Virus record (IMG/VR): IMGVR_UViG_2671180884_000031
Origin: a virus
Lineage: Duplodnaviria; Heunggongvirae; Uroviricota; Caudoviricetes
Strand: one strand, 5' to 3'
DNA length: 23,679 nucleotides
Position 1 is the first letter of the stretch; each line of letters begins with the position of its first letter. Made by a program: the position numbers and the translations under genes. Positions 5,795 to 17,708 of this stretch are shown in pieces. Under the pieces are notes generated by a model. That model ran no database searches. It worked only from the letters and a program-made list of their open reading frames with translations, and was not told the origin of the DNA.

Positions 5795-5967
5795 TATCGC
5801 GTCCTCAACAATGAATTTTGTGATGCAGTGCCTGGTGCCTCCAGGTGACGTTAACCAGTTAACAATTAACGCCGGATACAGAGAATCCACCCATAACACT
5901 GTTTTTGGTTTTAACTGTTCCGCGTGCGCTTAGCCGCATTCACCGCATCACAAAATTCACTTTAAAA

Positions 5968-6021
5968 ACGGCGGTAGAGCAGTCACGGAGTAAAACTGAT
6001 ACTGCCAAACGTCACCAGAAA
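5968..6021 (-). ncRNA. dicF: DicF small regulatory RNA (ftsZ-targeting antisense sRNA)
   Basis: Minus strand reads TTTCTGGTGACGTTTGGCAGTATCAGTTTTACTCCGTGACTGCTCTACCGCCGTTTTT, near-identical to recalled K-12 DicF, ending in a GC stem plus T-run; lies ~170 bp upstream of dicB as in K-12. Confidence 0.8.
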
Positions 6022-6052
6022 ATTGATAACAGAGGGCGTTGCAGCGGGGTTG

Positions 6053-6244
6053 TCACTTAAGCGTATGGTCAACCTGACAACTCGGTGTCCTCAACGGGGA
6101 AGGAATAACCCCGCCATACTTACCGCCGCGCCATTTCGCGGGTTGCCACAACCGGAAGCGCACGGTCGAATTAAATTTAACGACACCGTACAGTGAGACG
6201 AACTTCGCCGTGCGCTTTCGTGTTGTGTGCCTGCTTTTAACCAC
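6053..6244 (-). CDS. Hypothetical small basic protein in the ydfC position
   Basis: 63-aa ORF ending ~30 nt upstream of DicF, where K-12 has ydfC; no recognisable sequence features. Confidence 0.2.
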   Translation of the reverse strand: MVKSRHTTRKRTAKFVSLYGVVKFNSTVRFRLWQPAKWRGGKYGGVIPSPLRTPSCQVDHTLK

Positions 6245-6280
6245 GTCAGGCGAGGTGGTATCCTTAAAATCACCACAGTT

Positions 6281-6856
6281 TTAAGGATTCATTAAGCAAT
6301 GTCGCAACCACCAATAAATCCGCTTAAGAACATGAAAATTGATTACTGGTATAAAGCGCTTACAGTTGTTGGCGCTGCGTTGTTTGTCTTTAATGGAACG
6401 TCTTTTTTTGACAGATATCCCGTTGTTCCATTGGGTTTTTTGTCCTCCGGCATCTTTTTTATTGGTTTGGGGGAGTGGATTAATCACCCTCTCAAGGTGA
6501 GATTTATTGGTCCTGGAGTTTGGACTCGTGGATATAATCGTTCTTCGTGCGCACTCGGTATCATCTTCGACATACTTGGTTGTTTCCTGATTGTTACAGG
6601 AGTCGTCAAGTTCTTCTGATGTAAAACCGCAAATGGGGCACGTAACGGGAATTTTGAAAAGCGTTTCTCCGGGTTCCAGAACAAAATTTTCTGCGGTCTG
6701 ATTTTGCTTCTCATATTTGTGCTCCGCGTCATTGTGAGAGCACATTCTTATTCTGAGTGCCTGTTTAAACTCACTGAAGCTGAGAGCTTCTTCGCCTTCG
6801 GCAAGGCCTTCGAAGTATTCTTCGTAAGCCTTTTCCATGATTGTGTCGAAATCCAT
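6281..6856 (-). CDS. YdfB-like protein; 3' extent uncertain (the part at 6281..6619 may be an antisense shadow of the plus-strand membrane ORF)
   Basis: ATG at 6856 sits one nt after the ydfA stop; MDFDTIMEKAYEEYFEGLAEGEEALSFSEFKQAL resembles recalled YdfB (42 aa in K-12), but the frame stays open for 191 codons and includes a CPICGF motif. Confidence 0.35.
   Translation of the reverse strand: MDFDTIMEKAYEEYFEGLAEGEEALSFSEFKQALRIRMCSHNDAEHKYEKQNQTAENFVLEPGETLFKIPVTCPICGFTSEELDDSCNNQETTKYVEDDTECARRTIISTSPNSRTNKSHLERVINPLPQTNKKDAGGQKTQWNNGISVKKRRSIKDKQRSANNCKRFIPVINFHVLKRIYWWLRHCLMNP
6332..6619 (+). CDS. Hypothetical small membrane protein (three predicted TM segments)
   Basis: ORF 6299..6619; from the internal Met: MKIDYWYKALTVVGAALFVFNG...VVPLGFLSSGIFFIGLGEWI...SSCALGIIFDILGCFLIVTGVV. 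Convergent with, and codon-aligned antisense to, the minus-strand ORF 6281..6898, so only one of the two is likely real. Confidence 0.4.
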   Translation: MKIDYWYKALTVVGAALFVFNGTSFFDRYPVVPLGFLSSGIFFIGLGEWINHPLKVRFIGPGVWTRGYNRSSCALGIIFDILGCFLIVTGVVKFF

Positions 6857-6857
6857 A

Positions 6858-7013
6858 TCACTCACCTGAGTTTCTTTCCAGCCAGCGACGGGCACCATTT
6901 TCGGTTTTAAACGTTTTGCTTTTGGTATACGTCATCGCGGTGAACGTGCCGTCCTGGTTGGGGAACACGCCACATACCAGAGATTCGCTGTTGCCAAGAT
7001 CGATAGTATCCAT
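6858..7013 (-). CDS. ydfA: Small prophage protein YdfA (51 aa)
   Basis: MDTIDLGNSESLVCGVFPNQDGTFTAMTYTKSKTFKTENGARRWLERNSGE from ATG at 7013; matches recalled YdfA. Confidence 0.75.
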   Translation of the reverse strand: MDTIDLGNSESLVCGVFPNQDGTFTAMTYTKSKTFKTENGARRWLERNSGE

Positions 7014-7093
7014 GCTGACCTCATTTCCCCTTAACGCCGGGGTGGCGGAACTGTTTGCTGAGAACACCGTGCGGTGTGTTGATGTAAACAAGA

Positions 7094-7107
7094 TTAGCCA
7101 TGACTAA
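7094..7107. promoter_or_regulatory. Candidate DicA operator (TTAG-N6-CTAA palindrome) in the dicB-operon promoter region
   Basis: TTAGCCATGACTAA lies between dicA and ydfA; the same TTAG-N6-CTAA architecture recurs twice in the dicA-dicC intergenic region. Confidence 0.5.
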
Positions 7108-7157
7108 CATATTGGTCAAGTGATTTTGTATGTTATGGCTAACATAATTGATATAAT

Positions 7158-7188
7158 AAAAGATAACTCATTGATGATGTTATCTTTT
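7158..7188 (-). terminator. Candidate intrinsic terminator after dicA
   Basis: Perfect 10-bp inverted repeat AAAAGATAAC / GTTATCTTTT with an 11-nt loop, overlapping the dicA stop codon and followed on the minus strand by an A/T-rich tract. Confidence 0.4.
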
Positions 7189-7587
7189 ATTTGTCCGCTG
7201 ACGGGCTTTTAGTAATTCTTCAAAGAGTTTATTGAAATTTTTTACTCGAGCTCGCATTTCGGCGAGCTGGGTATCCTGTTCTGATTCTGGCAGTGCATTA
7301 AACAGCTCAAGGAGCTCTAGTTCTTTGGGGGCTAAGGCAACCGGCTTCTCAACAGGTGGTGTTGGTTGCTTGTCTTCATCGCCAAATAGAATCCATGTTG
7401 GTGAGCATTGCAATACTTTGCTGAGGGCAAAAAGGTTCTTCCCTGTAGGTTCACTATCATCCCGTTCCCATTGTGATACAGACACATGGGAGATTTTCAG
7501 GGCTTTAGCAAGAGACCTTTGGGTGTGTTTGAGGTTTTTCCGACGATACCTAATGCGTTCGCCGATGGTTAAATTTTTTGTATCCAT
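7180..7587 (-). CDS. dicA: HTH-XRE repressor DicA (135 aa)
   Basis: MDTKNLTIGERIRYRRKNLKHTQRSLAKALKISHVSVSQWERDDSEPTGKNLFALSKVLQCSPTWILFGDE...; XRE-type helix-turn-helix; matches recalled DicA. Confidence 0.85.
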   Translation of the reverse strand: MDTKNLTIGERIRYRRKNLKHTQRSLAKALKISHVSVSQWERDDSEPTGKNLFALSKVLQCSPTWILFGDEDKQPTPPVEKPVALAPKELELLELFNALPESEQDTQLAEMRARVKNFNKLFEELLKARQRTNKR

Positions 7588-7589
7588 AG

Positions 7590-7603
7590 TTAGCTAATGC
7601 TAA
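7590..7603. promoter_or_regulatory. Candidate DicA operator in the dicA-dicC divergent promoter region
   Basis: TTAGCTAATGCTAA (TTAG-N6-CTAA) starts 3 bp upstream of the dicA start codon. Confidence 0.45.
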
Positions 7604-7638
7604 ATCGTATTGACTATGTTTTTGTTAACATCTATTTT

Positions 7639-7654
7639 GTTAGTCATGACTAAC
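7639..7654. promoter_or_regulatory. Candidate DicA operator, perfect 16-bp palindrome
   Basis: GTTAGTCATGACTAAC is its own reverse complement; located 17 bp upstream of dicC. Confidence 0.55.
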
Positions 7655-7670
7655 ATCTAAGGTGTTTTAA

Positions 7671-7901
7671 ATGCTTAAAACTGACGCTCTTTTGTATTTC
7701 GGTTCAAAAACAAAACTTGCACAAGCAGCAGGTATTCGTTTGGCTTCGCTTTATAGCTGGAAAGGGGATTTAGTTCCCGAAGGTCGCGCGATGCGTCTAC
7801 AGGAGGCATCTGGCGGGGAGCTTCAGTATGATCCCAAAGTTTATGACGAATATCGTAAGACGAAGCGGGCGGGGCGGTTGAACAATGAAAATCACTCCTG
7901 A
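7671..7901 (+). CDS. dicC: Cro-like regulator DicC (76 aa)
   Basis: MLKTDALLYFGSKTKLAQAAGIRLASLYSWKGDLVPEGRAMRLQEASGGELQYDPKVYDEYRKTKRAGRL...; divergent from dicA. Confidence 0.8.
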   Translation: MLKTDALLYFGSKTKLAQAAGIRLASLYSWKGDLVPEGRAMRLQEASGGELQYDPKVYDEYRKTKRAGRLNNENHS

Positions 7902-8406
7902 ACAGGCTCGTGAGGCTCTGGATGCCTGGATATGTCGACCAGGAATGACACAGGAGCAGGCGACGATATTAATCACTGAAGCATTCTGGGCTTTGAAAGA
8001 GCGCTCGAACATCGATGTTCAGCGTGTCACATATGAAGGTGGCGCGGTTGATCAGCGAGCGCTTAGCGTTAATCGAGTGAAGATATTTGAACGCTGGAAG
8101 GCTATCGACACCAGGGATAAGCGTGAAAAGTTCACAGCGCTAGTGCCTGCAATTATGGAGGCTATCCGGATTAGTGATTTCAGGTTGTATCGTGAAATTA
8201 GTGACGGAAAGAGCATTACGTACATGATCGCTGGGTTAAATAAAGAATATGGCGATGTGGTGGAGTCCGGACTGCTTTTTGCAGATCCTGCCGTTGTAGA
8301 TCGTGAAACTGACGAACTTATAGAAAAAGCAATTGCTTTCAAGCTTGCGTATCGACAGCAATACCAACAAAAAGCTGGATGGAATTATGAGTCTTCTTTT
8401 TGCTGA
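7885..8406 (+). CDS. YdaT-like prophage protein (CII-like regulator / toxin YdaT family)
   Basis: 173-aa ORF overlapping the dicC 3' end by 17 bp; KREKFTALVPAIMEAIRISDFR resembles the Rac YdaT segment QREKIQKLIPAILAILPRELR. Confidence 0.5.
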   Translation: MKITPEQAREALDAWICRPGMTQEQATILITEAFWALKERSNIDVQRVTYEGGAVDQRALSVNRVKIFERWKAIDTRDKREKFTALVPAIMEAIRISDFRLYREISDGKSITYMIAGLNKEYGDVVESGLLFADPAVVDRETDELIEKAIAFKLAYRQQYQQKAGWNYESSFC

Positions 8407-9352
8407 ACGCCCACTGGTTATAAACACGCAGCTGGCAATGAAAATCGGCTTAAACGAAGCCATTGTTTTGCAACAACTGCACTACTGGTTGAGAGATACC
8501 AACTCCGGTATGGAATGTGATGGTGTTCGCTGGATTTATAACACAACGGAACAATGGCTGGAACAGTTCCCATTCTGGTCAGAGTCAACGTTAAAGCGCG
8601 CGTTTGCAAGTCTGAAAACGCTGGGGCTTTTGCGTTGTGAAAAGCTCAATAAATCAAAGCGCGATATGACCAATTTCTACACGATCAACTATGGGAGCGA
8701 GCTTTTAGATGGTGGCAAATTGAACGAATCCATCGGTTCAAAATGCGCCGCTCCATCAGGTCAAAATGACACGATGGAAGAGGTCAAAATGAAACGCTCC
8801 ATTGGTTCAAAACGACCCAATGTCATCGGGTCAAAATGGCCTGATGATCTTACAGAGAATACAACAGAGATTACTACAGAGAATAAAAACACTTTTCGTC
8901 CGGAAGCTTCGCAACCGGACCCGCAGACGACTGAACAGGATTTTTTAACCCGGAACCCCGACGCGGTTGTGTTTAGTGTGAAAAAACGCCAGTGGGGTAG
9001 CAGGGAGGATTTGGCGTGTGCGCAGTGGATTTGGGGGCGGATCGTGAACCTTTACGAACAGGCTGCCAGCGACGATGGAGAGATCATGCGACCAAAAGAG
9101 CCTAACTGGACAGCCTGGGCCAATGACGTGCGCACAATGCGGATGCTGGATGGCAGAAGCCATAGACAAATTTGCGAAATGTTTGGTCGGGTACAGCGGG
9201 ATCCATTCTGGGTAAAAAACATCATGAGCCCGTCAAAACTCCGCGAAAAATGGGACGAACTGGTCATCCGCCTGGGACGTTCACCTGAACAGCGTTGTGT
9301 GAATCATATTTCTGAACCGGATACAGAAATTCCGCCTGGTTTCAGAGGATAA
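8387..9352 (+). CDS. Phage replication initiation protein (lambda O-like replisome organiser) with internal iteron array
   Basis: ORF 8333..9352 with the likely start at ATG 8387; the N-terminal wHTH-like segment, an SIGSK-repeat middle encoded by DNA iterons, and the position after the cro/cII-like genes all fit an O-like initiator. Confidence 0.55.
   Translation: MSLLFAERPLVINTQLAMKIGLNEAIVLQQLHYWLRDTNSGMECDGVRWIYNTTEQWLEQFPFWSESTLKRAFASLKTLGLLRCEKLNKSKRDMTNFYTINYGSELLDGGKLNESIGSKCAAPSGQNDTMEEVKMKRSIGSKRPNVIGSKWPDDLTENTTEITTENKNTFRPEASQPDPQTTEQDFLTRNPDAVVFSVKKRQWGSREDLACAQWIWGRIVNLYEQAASDDGEIMRPKEPNWTAWANDVRTMRMLDGRSHRQICEMFGRVQRDPFWVKNIMSPSKLREKWDELVIRLGRSPEQRCVNHISEPDTEIPPGFRG
8729..8838. 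repeat. Iteron array, candidate prophage replication origin inside the O-like gene
   Basis: Five direct repeats of ~CATCGGTTCAAAATG at ~23-bp spacing (starting near 8729, 8752, 8777, 8798, 8822), followed by an A-rich ACAGAGA-repeat tract. Confidence 0.6.
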
Positions 9353-9392
9353 GTTTTGATTTCAGGTCATGAGGTAATTTTAAGGGGGACTT

Positions 9393-9794
9393 GTGGCAAA
9401 AGTTTTTACACAAGAAGAGCGGGAAAAAATTAAAGGGCAGGTGGTGGAACTCGTGCGCCAGAGTGGTCGTGAGACGTTACGGCAACTGGAAGCTAAAACA
9501 GGTGCGACTAGATATCTGATGAGCGTTCTTGCCAGAGAGCTGGTAGCCAGTGGCGATGTATACAACTCCGGCTACGTGTTATTCCCGTCTGAACAGGCGC
9601 GTAAGGACTGGCAAAACGCCCGCAAAAAACTATCGAGGGCAAAGGTGAAGAAAACAGCTGTGGTTGATCCGGACCTTATCTGGTCGTTACCTGATGGAGA
9701 AATACGTCGCTACGACAGTCGCCTAAACATAATCTGTCGCGAGTGCCGGATGAGTGAAGTTATGCAGCGCATACTGGCATTTTATCAGGGATAA
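9393..9794 (+). CDS. Hypothetical protein (GTG start), possibly replication-associated
   Basis: 133-aa ORF with an AGGGGG SD 5-6 nt upstream of GTG 9393; immediately follows the O-like gene. Confidence 0.45.
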   Translation: MAKVFTQEEREKIKGQVVELVRQSGRETLRQLEAKTGATRYLMSVLARELVASGDVYNSGYVLFPSEQARKDWQNARKKLSRAKVKKTAVVDPDLIWSLPDGEIRRYDSRLNIICRECRMSEVMQRILAFYQG

Positions 9795-9897
9795 TGTTAG
9801 GTATTTTAGACGTTACTAGATTAAAAAGCATTAGTTCAGGAGTGAATTGACATTCTCATTTTTCATGGCACAGGGTAGATCTGGCGTGGTTGTCCGC

Positions 9898-9918
9898 TTT
9901 GTGCCAGGAGCGGACGTT
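9898..9918. repeat. att-like repeat copy A (left boundary of cargo module 1)
   Basis: TGTGCCAGGAGCGGACGT (9900..9917) recurs exactly at 12452..12469 and in degenerate form at ~13998..14015. Confidence 0.5.
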
Positions 9919-10007
9919 GCTAATGGCATGATGTATGAACCAATGGAGAACCGATCATCTATACACATATAGATCCCTAACGAAAATATTGTTTTCACTA
10001 GCCCTGT

Positions 10008-10044
10008 AATGGAAGCGTTAATTTTATATTCTAACGCTTCCATT
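10008..10044. repeat. Perfect 13-bp inverted repeat (hairpin) downstream of the SDR gene
   Basis: AATGGAAGCGTTA (10008..10020), 11-nt loop, TAACGCTTCCATT (10032..10044); no flanking U-tract on either strand. Confidence 0.4.
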
Positions 10045-10096
10045 GAGCCTACCACTTTGGCAAAGCAATTCTTACACTTCAAAATAATGTGCTTTT

Positions 10097-10843
10097 TTAT
10101 TCAGCTAAATAACCGCCATCGATTGGATAAACGCCTCCGGTACAGAATGTAGAACTGTCTGACAGCAAGAACAATATGAAGTCTGCTATTTCCTGCATTT
10201 TTGCCATCCTTTTCATAGGGTGGCTATTTGCGAAACTACTTACAATATTTTCAGGGAACTCACTCATTCTTTGGGTTTGGACATAGCCCGGAGCGACTGC
10301 ATTGATTCGAATGCCTTGACATGCAAACTCTAGCGCTGCGGTTTGGGTTAAACCGATTATACCATGTTTAGCCACGGTGTAAGGTGCTAATCCAGGAATG
10401 CCAACCAGACCATTTACTGCAGATAAATTAACTATAGATCCACCAAACTTCATCATCTGGGGTATTTCATATTTTAGGCAGTGAAAAACGCCGCTCAATG
10501 AGGTAGCAATAACCTTATCCCAGTTTTCAACTGTCTGCTCTGTTATATTTTTACCATGTTCACCTGTTAAGCCTGCATTATTTACAGCATAATCAAGTCT
10601 GCCGAAATGTTTGATAACCTCATCTATCATTTGCCGTACTTGTTCGGGCTGTGACACATCACATCCGATCCCCATGGCTTGTTGTCCCTGTGAAGATAAT
10701 TGTTCCGCTTTTTGTTTAGCCTGTTCTGACGAGCGGGATACAATAACAACTTTTGCACCATGCTTATGTAATTGCTCTGCGACGGCCTCACCTATACCTG
10801 TAGTGCTTCCTGTTATAACGGCAATTTTATTCTGGAAATTCAT
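10097..10843 (-). CDS. SDR-family (short-chain dehydrogenase/reductase) oxidoreductase
   Basis: TGSTTGIG cofactor-binding motif, NNAG, catalytic YTVAKHG (YxxxK); start at ATG 10843 with a GGGGGTGG SD. Confidence 0.8.
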   Translation of the reverse strand: MNFQNKIAVITGSTTGIGEAVAEQLHKHGAKVVIVSRSSEQAKQKAEQLSSQGQQAMGIGCDVSQPEQVRQMIDEVIKHFGRLDYAVNNAGLTGEHGKNITEQTVENWDKVIATSLSGVFHCLKYEIPQMMKFGGSIVNLSAVNGLVGIPGLAPYTVAKHGIIGLTQTAALEFACQGIRINAVAPGYVQTQRMSEFPENIVSSFANSHPMKRMAKMQEIADFILFLLSDSSTFCTGGVYPIDGGYLAE

Positions 10844-10914
10844 AACCACCCCCTATGAAGTAGAATTGAGTCTTTCATCTGGGATAGTATACAAACCATC
10901 TGTGACAGTTTTTG

Positions 10915-11604
10915 TCAGTACTCTTTCCCCTCGCAGATCCCTTCTTTTATTCTCCATTTTTTCAATAAAATTGTCCTGCTTTCACTATAGTTGGAGTCAA
11001 GTTGCACAATATCTTCAATTTTGTCAGTTCTAAAATGACGAAAATCATTTCTCATCTCGCACCATGCAACCAAAAGCCAGCACGATTCCATGTATACCAA
11101 TCCGATGGGCCATATGACTCGTGAAGTGTAAGAATCTTTTTTATCACAATAATTTATTTTGATTTTCTTTCTTTTTTTTATAGCATTGCGAATGTCTTCA
11201 AAAAAAATCTCATTGTTTTCTGATGGACCGATCAGATAGGATTGACTCTCAATAAGATTTTTCAATTCACTGGGAATGACGGCGTGTATTTTCGCAAGCG
11301 CATTCTTTGCGGTAATTTTGAAATTATAATCTGTATTGTGCGATACCCAATTTAACCCAAGTGTAATAGCATTAATTTCTTCATGAGAAAGATTTAAGGG
11401 GGGCAAATGAAAGTCAGATTTAACAATATAACCAATTCCAGCACCACCTTCAATGCATACTCCTTGATGCTGCAGCGTTTTTATATCTCTGTAAAGGGAG
11501 CGTACACTTATTCCCAATCTTTCTGAGAGGATGGATGCTGTGATCGGATATCTTTGTGCCCTTAATATTTGTAGTAACTCGAGAAGTCTTTCTGTTCTAG
11601 TCAT
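10915..11604 (-). CDS. YafY-family transcriptional regulator (N-terminal HTH plus WYL-type ligand-binding domain)
   Basis: From the internal Met: MTRTERLLELLQILRAQRYPITASILSERLGISVRSLYRDIKTL..., a DeoR/YafY-type HTH followed by a WYL-like region; directly upstream of and co-oriented with the SDR gene. Confidence 0.6.
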   Translation of the reverse strand: MTRTERLLELLQILRAQRYPITASILSERLGISVRSLYRDIKTLQHQGVCIEGGAGIGYIVKSDFHLPPLNLSHEEINAITLGLNWVSHNTDYNFKITAKNALAKIHAVIPSELKNLIESQSYLIGPSENNEIFFEDIRNAIKKRKKIKINYCDKKDSYTSRVIWPIGLVYMESCWLLVAWCEMRNDFRHFRTDKIEDIVQLDSNYSESRTILLKKWRIKEGICEGKEY

Positions 11605-11822
11605 GTTGATAAATCCATTTTGAGGCGATTTCTTAAAGCATCTGTTAGATAAACATATTAGTACAAAGCAAGTGTACATGGCTAAGCTGAACTGCTACCG
11701 ATGATTAATACAGCGCTATGTTCGTAATGCGTACATAAGCGGTGATCATGAGTGTAAACATCCGCTTTTCGCTTATAAGGGACAACCATACTCAAATTTC
11801 CCACATTGCAGGAGATTTGAGT

Positions 11823-12425
11823 ATGAATACGTCACCGTGGAACAAAGACCGTATCATCGGCCAAAAAAGACCACTTCAGATATCTCATATCTGGGGGATC
11901 CGAATCCGGCTTGAACTGGAAGGTAAAACGCGCGATTTAGCTCTGTTCAATATGGCCCTGGACAGTAAGCTTCGAGGCTGTGATCTGGTCAAACTCAAAG
12001 TATCGGATGTGGCATATGGTAGTTCGGTTTCAAGCAGAGCAACGGTGTTGCAACAGAAAACCGGTAGCCCTGTGCAATTCGAGATAACCAAAGGGACAAG
12101 AGAAGCTGTTGCTGCATTGATAAAGCTTGGCAATTTGCACAGTAAAGACTTCTTGTTTCGGTCTCGGGTCGGAACTAACCAGCACATTTCAACCCGGCAA
12201 TACAACCGAATCTTTCATGGGTGGATAGAAAAACTTGGTCTCGAAGGTTCACTTTACAGCACACATTCAATGAGAAGAACAAAACCTTACCTGATCTACA
12301 AGAAAACCAAGAATCTCCGGGTGATCCAACTTCTGTTGGGTCATAAGAAACTGGAAAGCACAGTCCGTTATCTGGGCATTGAAGTCGATGATGCGTTAGA
12401 GATCTCTGAATCGATTGAAGTCTAA
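11823..12425 (+). CDS. Short tyrosine site-specific recombinase (~200 aa, phage-integrase family catalytic domain)
   Basis: AGGAG SD before ATG 11823; C-terminal HSMRRT...LLGHKKLESTVRYL carries the R/H-x-x-R ... Y catalytic signature. Confidence 0.65.
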   Translation: MNTSPWNKDRIIGQKRPLQISHIWGIRIRLELEGKTRDLALFNMALDSKLRGCDLVKLKVSDVAYGSSVSSRATVLQQKTGSPVQFEITKGTREAVAALIKLGNLHSKDFLFRSRVGTNQHISTRQYNRIFHGWIEKLGLEGSLYSTHSMRRTKPYLIYKKTKNLRVIQLLLGHKKLESTVRYLGIEVDDALEISESIEV

Positions 12426-12433
12426 GGTTGTCA

Positions 12434-12469
12434 GGGCTGCAACAGCAGCCCTGTGCCAGGAGCGGACGT
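12434..12469. repeat. att-like repeat copy B: hairpin GGGCTGC-AACA-GCAGCCC plus TGTGCCAGGAGCGGACGT core
   Basis: Begins 9 nt after the recombinase stop codon; hairpin plus a core identical to copy A. Confidence 0.5.
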
Positions 12470-12576
12470 CTAGTTCGCTGAACCACAAAAAGTCGTTTCT
12501 AGTTATATTACTGGCTCATTAGTATCTTTATGCGATAATATTTCATACAACCAAAATTATGATGAAGGGAGTTCAA

Positions 12577-13698
12577 ATGGCAATTACGGTCTATTCTCGT
12601 ACATTCAAAAAGGAATTGGACATGGTTCAATTGTTAAACCATTACTCATCAGATAACGCACTCAATTTCAGTGATTTCAAGGAATTTGTTGCCTTTGATG
12701 CAGAGTGCCCAATTTGCAATGTAAGCGGTGCGATTGTTGTTTCAGAAGGTTATTCGAAAAGAACAAATAAGATAGTCAGCCAATCTCATTTTGCGTTTAG
12801 AACAAAAGACGGAACTGATGCACACAAAGTATTTTGCGATCATTACAGTGGTGATGATAAGCAAATAGATTCATCAAGGGATGGTTTTATAAAATTCGGC
12901 ACCTCAGGTTCTGAGATTACAAGTATAATTCGCGAGCTTGTATGTAGAGGTATTGAACATGATGAGTTCAATCAGGAAGATATTCGAAACATGCGGCAAT
13001 GGTTTACAGAATTACGCCAGTCAGGCACTTTTTCTGTTAACTATAGCCCTCACATGATCAATCTAATAAGGGCCAGCATGTATTCCCGTAAGGGAGAAAG
13101 TAAATATATTGTAGATGAAGAGAGGAAAAATAAATCTTGGTTTGATATAAACGATGAAGTGTATCGTTCGTTAAGATTCAAATATCCATCATTGATGATC
13201 GACATGACTAATGAAAATAATTCTGTTTTCTATAATCTTGTGAATAGTACCACATTTACTAAACAAGCACATCGATTAGTAGCACGAGATCGAGGTTATC
13301 AGGTTTATGATAGAAGGTTGCTTAAAGAAAAATATGAAGCAACGATAAGAGTTGCACAAAAAATAACCAGGCATCACGAATTTCTTTTTAGGAAAATCAG
13401 GGGTATATCCGCTGTTAAAAAAAACAACCCCCTTTTGGCTGTATCTGCCTTGCTTCTTTTTGTCTCGGACTGGAATGAAACAACTGCAATCAACAAATTC
13501 ATCAAATTGTGTGGTGTAGGGAAATCTAAAAATAATGATGAGGGGAATGTAATTGGCTTAAATCCCTTTATTCATTACGATGTCTGGAATGTTATTCATC
13601 AACTTAAGGATTTAATGGTTACACTTCCAGACTTCTCAAATCTTGATGAAGAATTTGACAGAGAAAAATCCAGATTAATTGAACTTTACAAGCTCTAA
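12577..13698 (+). CDS. Hypothetical protein, 373 aa, AT-rich cargo gene; candidate accessory/anti-phage function
   Basis: GAAGGGAG SD 5 nt before ATG 12577; N-terminal CPIC ... HKVFCDH cluster suggests a metal-binding site; no family recognised by eye. Confidence 0.7.
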   Translation: MAITVYSRTFKKELDMVQLLNHYSSDNALNFSDFKEFVAFDAECPICNVSGAIVVSEGYSKRTNKIVSQSHFAFRTKDGTDAHKVFCDHYSGDDKQIDSSRDGFIKFGTSGSEITSIIRELVCRGIEHDEFNQEDIRNMRQWFTELRQSGTFSVNYSPHMINLIRASMYSRKGESKYIVDEERKNKSWFDINDEVYRSLRFKYPSLMIDMTNENNSVFYNLVNSTTFTKQAHRLVARDRGYQVYDRRLLKEKYEATIRVAQKITRHHEFLFRKIRGISAVKKNNPLLAVSALLLFVSDWNETTAINKFIKLCGVGKSKNNDEGNVIGLNPFIHYDVWNVIHQLKDLMVTLPDFSNLDEEFDREKSRLIELYKL

Positions 13699-13740
13699 CA
13701 TAAACTAGCAGGCTGCGTATACAGTCTGCTAATTTTCATA

Positions 13741-13970
13741 GTAAAGACTTCATGCTTCAGTCTCGAGTTGGAGCTATCCGTCACACATCACCCAGGCAAT
13801 TCAACCGAAATTTTTCATGGGGGGTAGAGAAGTTTTGTCTCGAAGATTTGCTTTACAGCATACTAATCATTGAACCTCTGTTGAACCATAAGAAACTGGC
13901 AAGCACAATCCGTTGCTTGGGCATTGAATTCGACGATGCGTCGTATAGCTCTGACTTGAACAAAACATAA
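13741..13970 (+). pseudogene. Degenerate duplicate of the tyrosine recombinase 3' end (remnant)
   Basis: About 75-80% nucleotide identity to 12142..12425 with an internal deletion; translation ...SRVGAIRHTSPRQFNRNF...LLNHKKLASTIRCLGIEFDDA parallels the recombinase C-terminus. Confidence 0.6.
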
Positions 13971-13978
13971 GGTTTTTA

Positions 13979-14015
13979 GGGCTGCAACAGCACCTCTGTG
14001 TCATAGGCGGAAGTT
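13979..14015. repeat. att-like repeat copy C (degenerate)
   Basis: GGGCTGCAACAGCACCTCTGTGTCATAGGCGGAAGT parallels copy B in the same position relative to the recombinase remnant. Confidence 0.45.
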
Positions 14016-14311
14016 AACAAACATTAAAATCTCTAAATCTGTAGGGATCAGACTCCTTCTATAAAAGGATACTGTTCATATCCTTAGTTGTATATAGGTG
14101 TGTTTAGAGTATTAGGATGCTAGTTTTGAAAATTAATTTTTTAAACATATTGAATTTTTTAAGAATTGGGAATAGTGTATAGCTTTGTCATGGCGGATTT
14201 TTTCTCTTCAAGTATTTATTTGAACACTACTTCTTGCACCTGCAAGGTTACAATATCGTGTAAATTTGTTCACAAAGACATAGATTATAATTTTTACTTA
14301 AAGGAAATTCA

Positions 14312-15565
14312 ATGTCAAAAAATCTCCCGGTTTTATTAAGCTCGCCATCAACAACTAATTTTCCTGCAACAGTTAATACTGAAATAGAATTCCTTTCGCA
14401 AGCTAGAAAGTTGTTAGATTCTGGCTTCCCTGATCATGCTCTTTTAGATATATGGAATGCATCCATTCATAATCTTAGGCGGCGAATTGAGGCTTATGGT
14501 TTAGACTTATTCCTTTCCGCAATAAAGGATGATAGTGGTCGTAAAAAATATGATAAAGATGGTGAAACAATAAACGAGAGATGGTCAGGTGTAGATGATT
14601 TAGTGCTAATAAGTGGAGCCACCAAATTAGGGGTTCTGCATAAGAAAGCTGGAAAATCATTAGAAATGATCAATTGGATGAGAAACCATGCCTCTCCAGC
14701 CCATGCAAGTGATAGTAAAGTAGAGTCTGAGGATGTGTTTGCTTTGGCTCTTATGCTCCAGAAGAATTTATTCGAATCTGATATGCCAGACCCTGGACAT
14801 TCGCCATCTGGATTATTTGAACCCATAAAAAAATCTGAACTATCAATTGAGAGCATAGACTTACTTAAAGATCAAATAAGAGCATTTAAGCAAGCTGATA
14901 TAAGAATAACATTTGGATTTTTATTGGATTTAATAACTAAGGGGGAAAATCCTGCTTATGTTAATGCTAGCAAGTTGTTTGAACAAGCATGGGAAAGATC
15001 TAATGATGACCTTAAAAAAACAGCGGGGGAAAGATATCACTCATTTATGCTGGAGCCCGAATCGGATACAAGTGAGGATAAAGGAGCAAAAATAAGAATT
15101 TTAGAGACTTTAGTAAAAGTTAATGGTGTGAAATTTATACCTGATGCTGCTAGGGCAAGTTTATACAGACATGCGGTTAAACAGCTAGCTAAAGCTAAGG
15201 ATACATCTTACGGCTGGAATGATGAAGAAAGAGCAGCCAAGGCACTTATACAATTTGGACCTCATGTTCCATCTATTGCTTTTGAAGATGTATATCAAGA
15301 AATACTTACTGTTTGGGTGGGGAATTACTGGGGAAGATCTGATGCACATTTAGTACTTCAACCATTTTTAGATGTGTTAAATAGTAATCAATTGATGGCT
15401 CTCTCACGGTTGTTCGTGGAGAATGAAAGAGCAAATTCAGAACTGGTGTCATCAAGGCCCAAAAGAAGAGCAATAGAATTACTTGAGATAATAAAAAATA
15501 ATCTAACAATTCAAGCAAGCATTGATGAAATTGATAGGATTATTTCTGAAATTGATAAAATGTAA
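14312..15565 (+). CDS. Hypothetical protein, 417 aa, with HEPN-like R-x6-H motif; candidate abortive-infection/defence protein
   Basis: AAGGAAA SD before ATG 14312; helical N-terminal region with WMRNHASPAH (R-x6-H) resembling the HEPN active-site motif; AT-rich; own terminator downstream. Confidence 0.7.
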   Translation: MSKNLPVLLSSPSTTNFPATVNTEIEFLSQARKLLDSGFPDHALLDIWNASIHNLRRRIEAYGLDLFLSAIKDDSGRKKYDKDGETINERWSGVDDLVLISGATKLGVLHKKAGKSLEMINWMRNHASPAHASDSKVESEDVFALALMLQKNLFESDMPDPGHSPSGLFEPIKKSELSIESIDLLKDQIRAFKQADIRITFGFLLDLITKGENPAYVNASKLFEQAWERSNDDLKKTAGERYHSFMLEPESDTSEDKGAKIRILETLVKVNGVKFIPDAARASLYRHAVKQLAKAKDTSYGWNDEERAAKALIQFGPHVPSIAFEDVYQEILTVWVGNYWGRSDAHLVLQPFLDVLNSNQLMALSRLFVENERANSELVSSRPKRRAIELLEIIKNNLTIQASIDEIDRIISEIDKM

Positions 15566-15577
15566 TTTATTTGCAAT

Positions 15578-15610
15578 TAAGCCATGCTTTTTAGGTGGCT
15601 TATTTTTTTT
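15578..15610 (+). terminator. Rho-independent terminator after the 417-aa gene
   Basis: AAGCCA ... TGGCTT stem followed by an 8-T run, 13 nt after the stop codon. Confidence 0.55.
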
Positions 15611-15882
15611 GAATCTACTACTTATATTGATATTAGCAATGTAATTGCTAAAGTATTCCTAGCCCACTATTCATCTAAATATGGTTGTCGAAAGGCCCGC
15701 TTCTCGCTCAAAGCGGACTAGAAGGTTAGCTTGTGTCGGACTTTGCGTATTAAATGACTAGTGGTTGAGCCCCATTTCCACAGAAAAAATCAGAGAAACT
15801 ATACCCAATAGTTGTATTGAATCACTGACGAGACAGCCTCATATTCATCAGGACTGGTGTACGTCCAATACAGGAGGTTGTG

Positions 15883-15972
15883 GTGCTGGTTCTCAAATGT
15901 GCGCTGGCTATTACGGCTGTAATGGCGATTTATTGTCTTGCTATTGTTCTTATGGATCGCCTTTCTGACTGA
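15883..15972 (+). CDS. Candidate small hydrophobic peptide (29 aa, GTG start), type-I-toxin-like
   Basis: Canonical AGGAGG SD (15872..15877), 5-nt spacer, GTG; product (M)LVLKCALAITAVMAIYCLAIVLMDRLSD is a single predicted TM helix. Overlaps a 67-aa Cys/Gly-rich ORF in another frame that is judged spurious. Confidence 0.3.
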   Translation: MLVLKCALAITAVMAIYCLAIVLMDRLSD

Positions 15973-16183
15973 TTTCACATTGGCGAGGTAACGGTAGTTA
16001 AGTAGAATGGCTGCGGGTGCTTGAGGCTATCTGCCTCGGGCATGAACACCAACGGCAGATAGAGAAAAGCCCCAGTTAACATTACGCGTCCTGCAAGACG
16101 CTTAACATTAATCTGAGGCCAATTTCATGCTAGACATATGTAGGTTAGCCTCTTACGTGCCGAAAGGCAAGGAGAAGCAGGCT

Positions 16184-16339
16184 ATGAAGCAGCAAAAGGC
16201 GATGTTAATCGCCCTGATCGTCATCTGTTTAACCGTCATAGTGACGGCACTGGTAACGAGGAAAGACCTCTGCGAGGTACGAATCCGAACCGGCCAGACG
16301 GAGGTCGCTGTCTTCACAGCTTACGAACCTGAGGAGTAA
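16184..16339 (+). CDS. hokD: Hok-family small membrane toxin HokD (RelF)
   Basis: MKQQKAMLIALIVICLTVIVTALVTRKDLCEVRIRTGQTEVAVFTAYEPEE matches recalled HokD; AAGGAGAA SD; an in-frame upstream ATG at 16127 could give an extended form. Confidence 0.8.
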   Translation: MKQQKAMLIALIVICLTVIVTALVTRKDLCEVRIRTGQTEVAVFTAYEPEE

Positions 16340-16407
16340 GAGACCCGGCGAGGGAGAAATCCCTCGCCACCTCTGATGTGGCAGGCATCCTCAACGCACC
16401 CGCACTT

Positions 16408-16439
16408 AACCCGCTTCGGCGGGTTTTTGTTTTTATTTT
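16408..16439 (+). terminator. Rho-independent terminator after hokD
   Basis: CCCGC-TTCG-GCGGG hairpin followed by TTTTTGTTTTTATTTT; a second 8-bp hairpin (GGCGAGGG/CCCTCGCC) lies at 16347..16368. Confidence 0.6.
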
Positions 16440-17152: not shown

Positions 17153-17708
17153 CGTGCGGGTATTACTTAGACCTGTTCTGGTGCCTGAGCTTGGGCTGGT
17201 GGTCCTTAAGCCGGGCCGTGAATCCATACAGATATTTCATAATCCTCGAGTGCTGGTGGAACCGGAACCAAAAAGCATGCGTAATCTGCCATCCGGAGTC
17301 GTTCCTGCCGTTCGCCAGCCGCTGGCGGAAGACAAAACATTGCTGCCGTTTTTTAGTAACGAACGGGTGATTCGTGCTGCTGGCGGTGTTGGCGCATTGT
17401 CTGACTGGCTATTACGTCATGTTACATCCTGCCAGTGGCCTAATGGCGATTACCATCACTCTGAAACAGTCATTCACCGTTATGGTACCGGCGCAATGGT
17501 GTTGTGTTGGCACTGCGACAACCAACTGCGTGACCAGACATCGGAATCACTGGAGCTGCTTGCTCAACAAAATCTGACAGCATGGGTGATTGACGTCATC
17601 CGTCACGCAATAAGCGGTACGCAGGAGCGGGAATTATCTTTGGCTGAATTATCCTGGTGGGCGGTCTGCAATCAGGTGGTGGATGCACTACCTGAGGCTG
17701 TATCTTAA
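17115..17708 (+). CDS. Late-gene antiterminator Q-like protein (zinc-finger), candidate
   Basis: C-terminal [10 protein letters not shown] ... CWHCDNQ cysteine/histidine cluster; sits upstream of the csp genes and the lysis cassette, as quuQ does in Qin. Confidence 0.4.

Follow-up and report, generated by a model that had tools for sequence, protein, structure and literature searches.

A probable stack of site-bounded gene cassettes, with a linked short tyrosine recombinase, in a variable interval of a lambdoid prophage

The window analyzed here is the whole 23,679-nucleotide stretch of a Caudoviricetes virus record (IMG/VR IMGVR_UViG_2671180884_000031), and our subject is the island of accessory genes that it carries at positions 9892–15718, together with a short tyrosine recombinase gene inside that island. 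Our analysis suggests that the island is probably a stack of gene cassettes, each bounded by short recombination sites, sitting in a docking site (or socket) of a lambdoid prophage. The prophage can be placed among the Qin/Rac-like lambdoid types because of the genes around the island (DUF977/lygF, YdaT, Cro/CI-like regulators, DicB, hokD/sok, and rem). The modules move INDEPENDENTLY, with breakpoints in the sites, and the candidate enzyme is a recombinase of 200 amino acids (aa). Read from left to right, the window holds lygF and a site of class c1; an SDR-family oxidoreductase and a WYL regulator; a site of class c2, the recombinase gene, and a hairpin joined to an altered c1 (c1*); a 373-aa gene, a recombinase remnant, a decayed c1, and a 417-aa gene; and finally a second c2 followed by hokD.

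The sites are 24 bp long and consist of two inverted arms of 7–8 bp (GTCCGCT / AGCGGAC) around a 7-bp core (consensus GTCCGCTYTGWGCSARRAGCGGAC). Two core positions separate the classes: c1 (GTCCGCT-Y-TGTGCCA-RR-AGCGGAC) has the core TGTGCCA, and c2, which always stands in the opposite orientation to c1, has TGAGCGA. Full 24-bp sites of both classes occur at every module boundary in the window and related loci, and within them the backbone-proximal arm and the core are conserved, whereas the cargo-proximal arm and the two bases that follow the core differ from one cargo to another. A first, sequence-only reading of this DNA had noticed part of the unit, an 18-mer (TGTGCCAGGAGCGGACGT) at 9900 and 12452. 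The repeat itself is confirmed, with exact copies on the plus strand at 9900–9917 and 12452–12469, where 0.01 matches (with up to three mismatches) would be expected by chance and none of 100 shuffles gave two or more; the real unit, however, is the near-palindromic 24-bp site (9892–9915 and 12444–12467), of which the 18-mer is the core plus right arm. The degenerate copy reported near 13998 is likewise present, at 13998–14015 (TGTGTCATAGGCGGAAGT) and in register inside a 142-nt direct repeat, though its five mismatches hid it from a search that allowed three.

The left docking site is a plus-strand c1 at 9892–9915 (GTCCGCTT-TGTGCCA-GG-AGCGGAC), which holds the first copy of the 18-mer (9900–9917); its backbone-side half is conserved in other prophages, whose homology to the window stops at 9914–9923. 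The right docking site is a minus-strand c2 at 15695–15718 (reading GTCCGCTT-TGAGCGA-GA-AGCGGGC on that strand): homology to the hokD flank resumes at 15697–15704 in other prophages, and copies of the cargo in integrative and conjugative elements (ICEs) and islands end at 15718/15719. The island had been described as bounded by the repeat and ending at 15610; its true right end is this inverted sister site.

The clearest case of mobility is module 1, the 5′ part of the island. In the related prophage contig L188 (IMGVR_UViG_2737471844_000007), window positions 9290–9917 (88%) are joined directly to 12452–16427 (98.3%); the two alignments overlap by exactly one 18-mer, and 9918–12451 are missing. 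With only one 18-mer at the join of 9917 and 12452, L188 represents the empty allele, and module 1 is an insertion of 2552 bp with an 18-bp direct repeat at its ends. The insertion has the features of a classical integrative element: direct repeats at 9900 and 12452, a recombinase gene adjoining one of them (it ends 26 bp before the second copy of the 18-mer), and a one-copy empty site.

The rest of the island is found in elements of other kinds. Modules 2 and 3 (12452–15719, 3268 bp) recur at 99.8% identity in an ICE present in about ten genomes (L011; trbJ/trbL ... tRNA-Ser), where the flanks are unrelated and homology runs from the opening base of the 18-mer to a point within c2; on the left the ICE has a complete c1, whose left arm is specific to that element. 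The whole block (9896/9892–15718) is 99.8% identical in L217 and L218, again ending in c1 and c2, on backbones that are a replicase/YobI-ATPase island and a dynamin/patatin island. In L222, the SDR and WYL genes alone (9892–11773, 97%) lie between c1 and c2, and a 19-bp linker and the next c1 follow that c2 instead of the recombinase gene. The sequence-only reading had proposed as its own check that the presence of one module should not depend on that of another and that breakpoints should fall at the 18-bp core, and this is what L188, the ICE, the islands, and L222 exhibit; its picture of serial accretion of recombinase-borne modules is largely supported by the empty and occupied alleles and by the cargo shared among unrelated elements. 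The L222 locus (5805–8830; GCA_014901845.1, reverse-complemented) is an array of at least two cassettes, SDR and WYL followed by a 159-aa gene, located between two sets of iron-uptake ABC transporter genes with no obvious mobile element.

The same reading had divided the island into three modules at the repeats. A boundary between modules 2 and 3 did exist at the decayed c1 (13990–14013, plus strand; core TGTGTCA, arm GGCGGAA), but decay of that site has left the two as a single fused module that moves as a unit, and of the 14 genomes with a match to module 3, 13 have both. That boundary must have been active once, because strain SF-468 (L013) has the same remnant and then the site, followed by a different gene: its 373-aa gene is 90% identical with the same fusion point, its remnant is 93.5% identical to the intact recombinase, and the different gene comes after the site homologous to 13990–14013. 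In the window, the remnant is the decayed 3′ part of a second recombinase gene (13719–13997, plus strand; 74–77% identical to 12120–12451), made up of a 145-nt direct repeat (13719–13863 versus 12120–12264, 74%) that represents the decayed recombinase 3′ end and the 142-nt repeat mentioned above (13873–14014 versus 12328–12469, 77% identity), and it includes a degenerate hairpin at 13979–13996. Insertion sequences have entered in or next to this decayed site (IS903B in an ICE copy, L012 about 7520–8580), and a fragment of the 373-aa gene located in Qin is interrupted by copies of IS1 (L014 5248–7624).

Where within the sites exchange takes place can be approached by comparing site pairs in which one flank is at least 95% identical and the other less than 50%. 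For both c1 and c2, sites that share a backbone but not their cargo stay alike up to positions 16–17, where the first differences appear, and sites that share cargo but not a backbone first differ at about position 9 or further out. Since divergence sets in at 16–17 on one side and at about 9 or lower on the other, the exchange point falls within the 7-bp core (positions 9–15). An exchange point in the core is predicted by the overlap region of tyrosine recombinases and not by recombination spread over 24 bp of homology.

This bears on an explanation in which the 24-bp palindromes are conserved boundary linkers, the cargo is swapped by RecA or by Red/RecET acting on short homology, and the recombinase is a passenger. 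Lambdoid phages do exchange segments in mosaic fashion where short boundary sequences are conserved, a length of 24 bp comes close to the minimum that Red/RecET needs, and many sockets have no recombinase nearby. However, the breakpoints are not spread over the 24 bp but cluster in the 7-bp core, ICEs and islands without phage recombination genes have their cargo delimited by the same sites, module 1 has a flanking direct repeat and an exact empty allele, and the recombinase is bracketed by sites across the Proteobacteria, with a site sequence that changes with the recombinase. We regard short-homology exchange as unlikely, though it is the strongest of the alternatives considered here.

The interval between lygF and hokD is a hotspot. 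Its flanks are present in thousands of prophages among 5426 complete E. coli genomes and the DNA between them differs, which bears out the earlier suggestion that this is a region for accessory genes ahead of hokD. In other prophages the interval carries KwaB-like, SMODS+SLATT, RelA/SpoT, DUF4209, FRG, DUF262, methyltransferase, QueH, and other genes. Ten of these loci lose homology to the window at 9914–9923 and regain it at 15697–15704, in both cases inside the sites.

Scanning IMG/VR with the exact c1 pattern returned at least 120 contigs. Among the matches listed, to which the flank and site-order counts below refer, the 40-nt flanks formed 34 left and 63 right clusters that combine freely, and the same cargo flank stood behind two to four different backbones. 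A consistent grammar emerged from 121 loci, in which c1(+) was followed by c2(-) 100 times and by another c1(+) three times, with cassette lengths of 424–5404 bp (median 1474). The gap between c2(-) and the next c1(+) was exactly 18 bp in 21 of 26 cases, giving a c2-linker-c1 junction of 66 bp whose halves are reverse complements apart from the two class-defining core positions. This junction is present in 809 of the 5426 E. coli genomes, always in unannotated DNA.

Sockets occur in lambdoid prophages, in ICEs and islands, in P2-like phages between the tail-fibre assembly gene G and the sheath gene FI, downstream of umuDC-like genes, and downstream of a lysozyme-like gene. In phage P2 itself (AF063097; L225 336–359 and 2433–2456), fun(Z) is flanked by c1 at 15335–15358 and an inverted c2 at 17432–17455, and the variable G–FI locus of P2 is therefore one such socket. 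Many P2-like contigs in IMG/VR carry other cargo at G–FI, such as a ParA-like three-gene set. In E. coli K-12, the Qin prophage has flxA between a c1 (inside the doubtful open reading frame ydfV) and a c2-like site (L095 3982–4005 and 4973–4996; MG1655 about 1645981–1646995); the K-12 Qin region contains no copy of the 200-aa recombinase. The K-12 gene intK/ydfW was considered as a possible recombinase remnant and rejected, as tblastn gave no similarity.

Since each site can form a short hairpin with a 7-bp stem, and the second copy of the 18-mer follows a stop codon, the repeats might be taken for ordinary transcription terminators, or for chance similarities, with no role in rearrangement. 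The sequence-only reading had named ordinary terminators shared by unrelated loci as one finding that would undo it. The repeats are not terminators, because a T-run is absent and they stand at the module junctions of unrelated elements; moreover, a terminator scan does not pick up the sites, the chance expectation for the 18-mer (above) is low, and in dozens of unrelated contexts homology breaks off at the sites. The breakpoints already contradict this explanation, which we consider very improbable.

The recombinase gene (11823–12425, plus strand) is preceded by an AGGAG ribosome-binding site 8 nt upstream and matches PF00589 (1e-17; 64.8 bits versus a cutoff of 27.1). By eye, from the translation and an alignment with XerD, the full catalytic set is present (R51, K79, H148, R151, H173, and Y183). 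The catalytic domain starts at about residue 35, leaving no room for the N-terminal core-binding domain of ~100 aa. In size the protein is comparable to FimB/FimE-type invertases, to which the NCBIfam matches are weak, and a sequence search of the PDB gave a weak match to the XerD C-terminus only. The 200-aa length is conserved in a family of at least 8000 clusters. Homologues with 78–97% identity are spread across Enterobacterales, Morganellaceae, and Alteromonadales, others with 60–65% are found in Pseudomonas, Burkholderiales, and Methylophilaceae, and others still with 49–58% reside on plasmids of Marinobacter and Alphaproteobacteria (Ruegeria, Sphingopyxis, and Novosphingobium; tblastn against 72,556 plasmids). 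Among complete E. coli genomes, 865 of 5426 have the gene, mostly in single copy. The IntKX subgroup of Smyshlyaev et al. was set aside, as its members are full-length ICE integrases and a different protein.

The gene is embedded in the site system. On its left lies a degenerate c2-like site (11760–11783; minus strand, reading GTCCCTTATAAGCGAAAAGCGGAT), which closes cassette 1 on the right and opens the recombinase module on the left, and homology to the recombinase modules of other islands begins at 11761. On its right is a GC hairpin (GGGCTGC-AACA-GCAGCCC; 12434–12451, plus strand) that belongs to the 3′ flank of the recombinase gene and directly abuts the next core in place of the left arm. 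The resulting c1* (12444–12467, plus strand; AGCAGCCC-TGTGCCA-GG-AGCGGAC), which holds the second copy of the 18-mer (12452–12469), is canonical only in its core and right arm, its left arm being replaced by the 3′ half of the hairpin. Such hairpins had been noted ahead of both the second and third copies of the 18-mer; the one before the second is exact, and before the third there is only the degenerate GGGCTGCAACAGCACCTC. All close homologues examined have the hairpin and a c1 core plus arm after the stop codon, and c2(-), where found, lies about 60 bp upstream of the start. In other islands the recombinase is preceded by other minus-strand cargo, a 366-aa or 449-aa hypothetical protein (L001 2146–4987; L002/L003 4555–5663). 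Given this different cargo in the position of the SDR and WYL genes, the unit of cargo, c2, recombinase, and c1 recurs with its cargo changed.

A hairpin of another sequence persists in more distant homologues (z < -2 in 22 of the 28 family members); behind it stand a core and arm unlike those of the close homologues, such as TAACCGGCCA-AA-AGCAGCC, which recurs inverted upstream and elsewhere nearby. The strict enterobacterial site patterns found no sites around the homologues with 60–65% identity, for which a separate consensus was derived: these Pseudomonas-type genes have the same architecture with a different site (CGGCCA-RR-AGCGGYC) that is repeated in the neighbourhood. In Pseudomonas/Stutzerimonas loci L042, L046, L053, L059, L069, and L072 (around 7898 and 8630), the recombinase is bracketed by GGTCGCTAAC-CGGCCA-RR-AGCGGYC, and a recurring unit (actttttcaacagaatCGGCCA...) is scattered near the recombinase genes. 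These observations suggest a parallel cassette system with its own site dialect. Mainly because gene and site travel together and change together, we assign the sites to this protein and infer that the 200-aa recombinase is the enzyme that acts on c1 and c2.

Two other accounts accept much of this evidence and explain it differently. In the first, the recombinase module and the 66-bp junction derived from it form an element resembling an insertion sequence or a miniature inverted-repeat transposable element (MITE), with terminal inverted repeats (GTCCGCTCCTCGCTCA ... TGTGCCAGGAGCGGAC), and the cassettes are simply the DNA left between insertions. Positions 11761–12469 do form a discrete 709-bp unit that is 93–95% identical across islands and has inverted-repeat ends, and the dispersed 66-bp junction has the same ends. 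The insertion that distinguishes the window from L188, however, comprises cargo as well as recombinase and is bounded by direct c1 cores and not by the module ends; cargo blocks move with half-sites only, without recombinase or linker; no target-site duplication was seen; and backbone sockets have a single c1 and c2 with no junction between them. A transposable element of this kind seems to us a shade less probable than short-homology exchange.

In the second account, the recombination sites are real, but they are used by host XerCD or by the recombinase of the carrier, and the 200-aa protein is either inactive or confined to local inversion or regulation. Host XerCD does serve the dif modules of Acinetobacter, the 200-aa protein is unusually short, and the sites outnumber the recombinase genes. 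Nevertheless, the site is unlike the half-sites of E. coli dif, the elements carrying sockets (P2, lambdoid prophages, and ICEs) have unrelated integrases, and the linkage of recombinase and site, with their change in step, is hard to explain otherwise. We think it improbable, and somewhat more so than the transposable element, that another enzyme works these sites.

If the sites are indeed worked by the 200-aa recombinase, exchange could proceed as follows. The enzyme would cut and exchange strands within the 7-bp core, pairing only matching cores. A c1 × c1 event would integrate or excise a circle composed of cargo, c2, connector, and c1, or would fuse two replicons, and a second event at the other class (c2 × c2) would resolve the intermediate, so that on balance new cargo would take the place of the old between c1 and c2. 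Circles or cointegrates would be the intermediates, and specificity would depend on the core; the two-base mismatch between cores would keep adjacent inverted c1 and c2 sites from inverting the cargo. Arrays take the form backbone-c1(+)-cargo-c2(-)-connector-c1(+)-cargo-c2(-)-backbone, with either the 18-bp linker or the recombinase gene and hairpin as connector. Module 1 (cargo, c2, recombinase, and c1*) would be the self-sufficient form of the cassette, and linker-joined cassettes would depend on recombinase supplied in trans. The window itself may have arisen in two steps: the fused module (373-aa gene, remnant, decayed site, and 417-aa gene) would first have occupied the lygF–hokD socket, a state as in L188, and a 2552-bp circle carrying the SDR and WYL genes, c2, and the recombinase would then have integrated at c1, duplicating the 18-mer.

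Several points weigh against this interpretation. It rests wholly on comparative genomics, and neither a cassette in circular form nor a cointegrate turned up. With nearly invariant arms, the sites offer only three informative positions (8, 16, and 17) for placing the crossover, and the IMG/VR contigs were selected by an exact pattern. The protein is short and lacks a normal core-binding domain. Some 84% of complete E. coli genomes have no recombinase and most socket-bearing prophages lack it in cis, so the enzyme would have to act in trans and transiently. Finally, the sites beside the recombinase gene have one canonical arm only.

The gene content proposed from sequence alone (an SDR, a YafY-type regulator, a short tyrosine recombinase, and two unknown proteins) was confirmed by Pfam, NCBIfam, and PADLOC profile searches. 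Cassette 1 encodes on the minus strand a 248-aa SDR-family oxidoreductase (10097–10843; Pfam adh_short_C2 4e-70, adh_short 6e-56), identical copies of which occur in at least four different contexts, and a YafY-like regulator with HTH_11 and WYL domains (10915–11604; Pfam WYL 2e-16, HTH_11 2e-13; PADLOC WYL 4e-61), 229 aa long as called in public assemblies. Together they have the look of a small, regulated module for metabolism or sensing. In complete E. coli genomes this cassette was found in only three identical arrangements, which are uninformative.

The two proteins of the fused module each match a PHROG of unknown function, and neither matched any Pfam, NCBIfam, or PADLOC family. The 373-aa protein (12577–13698, plus strand; an alternative start at 12559 gives 379 aa) has a confident AlphaFold2 model with no fold match in the PDB. 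Its Cys44, Cys47, and His83 are invariant and Cys87 nearly so, and the N-terminus bearing these residues could be a small zinc-binding domain. A terminator-like hairpin found by the terminator scan follows the gene (13706–13731, plus strand). The 417-aa protein (14312–15565, plus strand) is all-helical, possibly with an N-terminal HEPN-like domain; an R-x6-H motif (R124...H131) is invariant in it, its structure weakly resembles that of HEPN RNases, and the protein is found at 57% identity or more across Gammaproteobacteria, Burkholderiales, one Cyanobium, and one Lentisphaerota genome. The terminator of its own that the gene had been credited with (AAGCCA...TGGCTT plus T8, about 15574–15605) is discernible by eye only. 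When the cargo was tested for anti-phage families, PADLOC returned nothing for either protein and a WYL match only for the regulator. A defence role for the two genes is a reasonable guess only, made because of the company they keep in the hotspot.

Outside the cassettes, an inverted c1 core (TGGCACA, TGGCACAG), read from the sequence at 9866–9872 on the plus strand, lies about 19–20 bp upstream of the docking c1; it may represent an additional binding site or what is left of an outer half-junction. A GGCACAG(R)GTA motif is equally spaced in lambdoid and P2-type left flanks (L096–L215). Rfam scanning detected the sok antitoxin RNA of the hokD locus strongly (112.7 bits) and an isrK-like RNA weakly and below threshold (25.7 bits versus a gathering score of 50) at 16015–16189 and 16348–16429, and had no match at the sites.

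A literature search with the site sequences gave no match and keyword searches led to no described system; papers on the P2 Z/fun locus, including one from 2004, were outside its reach. That 2004 study, by Nilsson et al., probably described, judging by its title, conserved sequences around the inserts at the locus and may already propose site-specific recombination there. The system appears to be uncharacterised and widespread, within the known kind of site-bounded cassette systems, though the 2004 work on P2 may anticipate part of it. How genes are exchanged at such hotspots has been an explicit question: a 2026 survey of P2/P4 hotspots stated that the mechanism is unknown, found transposons, homologous recombination, and illegitimate recombination unsatisfying as options, and mentions neither such sites nor the recombinase, while Rousset et al. 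(2022) speculated about cos ends and homologous recombination. We see an even chance that a self-encoded, Proteobacteria-wide plug-and-socket exchange, built on the 200-aa recombinase and two heterospecific 24-bp sites, provides the mechanism that has been missing for the swapping of defence and other accessory genes between the hotspots of unrelated mobile elements (the lambdoid lygF–hokD interval, P2 Z/fun, ICEs, and islands). If so, it would be a natural two-site cassette-exchange enzyme of minimal size and would speak to the open question of how defence genes move rapidly between phage, satellite, plasmid, and island hotspots. A defined site pair and a candidate enzyme make the question directly testable, and cassette boundaries that can be called by sequence would offer a guilt-by-association route to new defence genes, possibly including the two unknown proteins described here. 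A very small recombinase with two natural, mutually incompatible sites could also be of use in biotechnology, and the system would extend site-bounded modules beyond integrons and Acinetobacter plasmids.

The comparison with integrons shows both shared and distinct traits. As in integrons, cassettes accompany a tyrosine recombinase gene, the junctions are imperfectly palindromic (here the 66-bp c2-18 nt-c1 unit), excision would release cargo and a single junction as a circle, and the cargo is rich in defence-type genes. Unlike integron integrases (IntI is about 320 aa long), the 200-aa recombinase scores 53.5 bits against a cutoff of 220 on the NCBIfam XerA/integron-integrase model; in place of attC sites with R''/L''-L'/R' boxes and a GTTRRRY core, the junction consists of two 24-bp sites with the cores TGAGCGA and TGTGCCA, and breakpoints map to both, so that each junction has two crossover points rather than one. 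Unlike the promoterless integron cassettes, which share one orientation and are expressed from Pc, the cassettes here have their own promoters and either orientation (cassette 1 on the minus strand, modules 2 and 3 on the plus strand), with long AT-rich 5′ regions inside them, and the sockets are scattered over mobile elements and not gathered on one platform with attI and Pc. Engineered cassette exchange with Cre or Flp and heterospecific lox or FRT sites likewise holds cargo between two sites that differ only in their cores, and hence should be unable to recombine with one another, and replaces it by two crossovers between like sites, whereas the present system would be a natural one with its own enzyme, the heterospecificity of c1 and c2 being suggested only by their two core differences.

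The shufflon of R64 offers a parallel at the level of the site. In its sfx sites the left arm varies, the 7-bp core reads GTGCCAA, and the right arm of 12 bp is conserved (PMC4176322). The sites adjoining the recombinase (11760–11783 and 12444–12467) share this asymmetric layout, and GTGCCAG stands here where the shufflon has GTGCCAA; in contrast, most sites in our system are symmetric, and unrelated genes are exchanged between replicons rather than segments inverted within one gene. A relationship with Rci was looked for and rejected: tblastn against the 72,556 plasmids gave no IncI rci among its matches, and its 28 Escherichia records were, among the matches listed, close homologues of the query.

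The closest described system is that of the Acinetobacter dif modules. These are bounded by inversely oriented, alternating pdif sites of the form XerC-6 bp-XerD, acted on by host XerC/XerD, for which spacer-matched reactions are thought to be needed; they probably move through cointegrates, become fused upon loss of a site, and have been described as unique to Rep_3 plasmids of Acinetobacter (PMC13141974). Alternating inverted sites are shared with the present system, where c2(-) followed c1(+) in 100 of 103 cases among the matches listed, and so is the fused module, represented here by the decayed site at 13990–14013. The differences lie in the consensus, which is unlike dif; in a dedicated 200-aa recombinase gene linked to the sites; in two classes of core rather than the C/D asymmetry; and in the hosts, which here are phages, ICEs, and islands of Enterobacterales, together with other Proteobacteria in which other sites are used.

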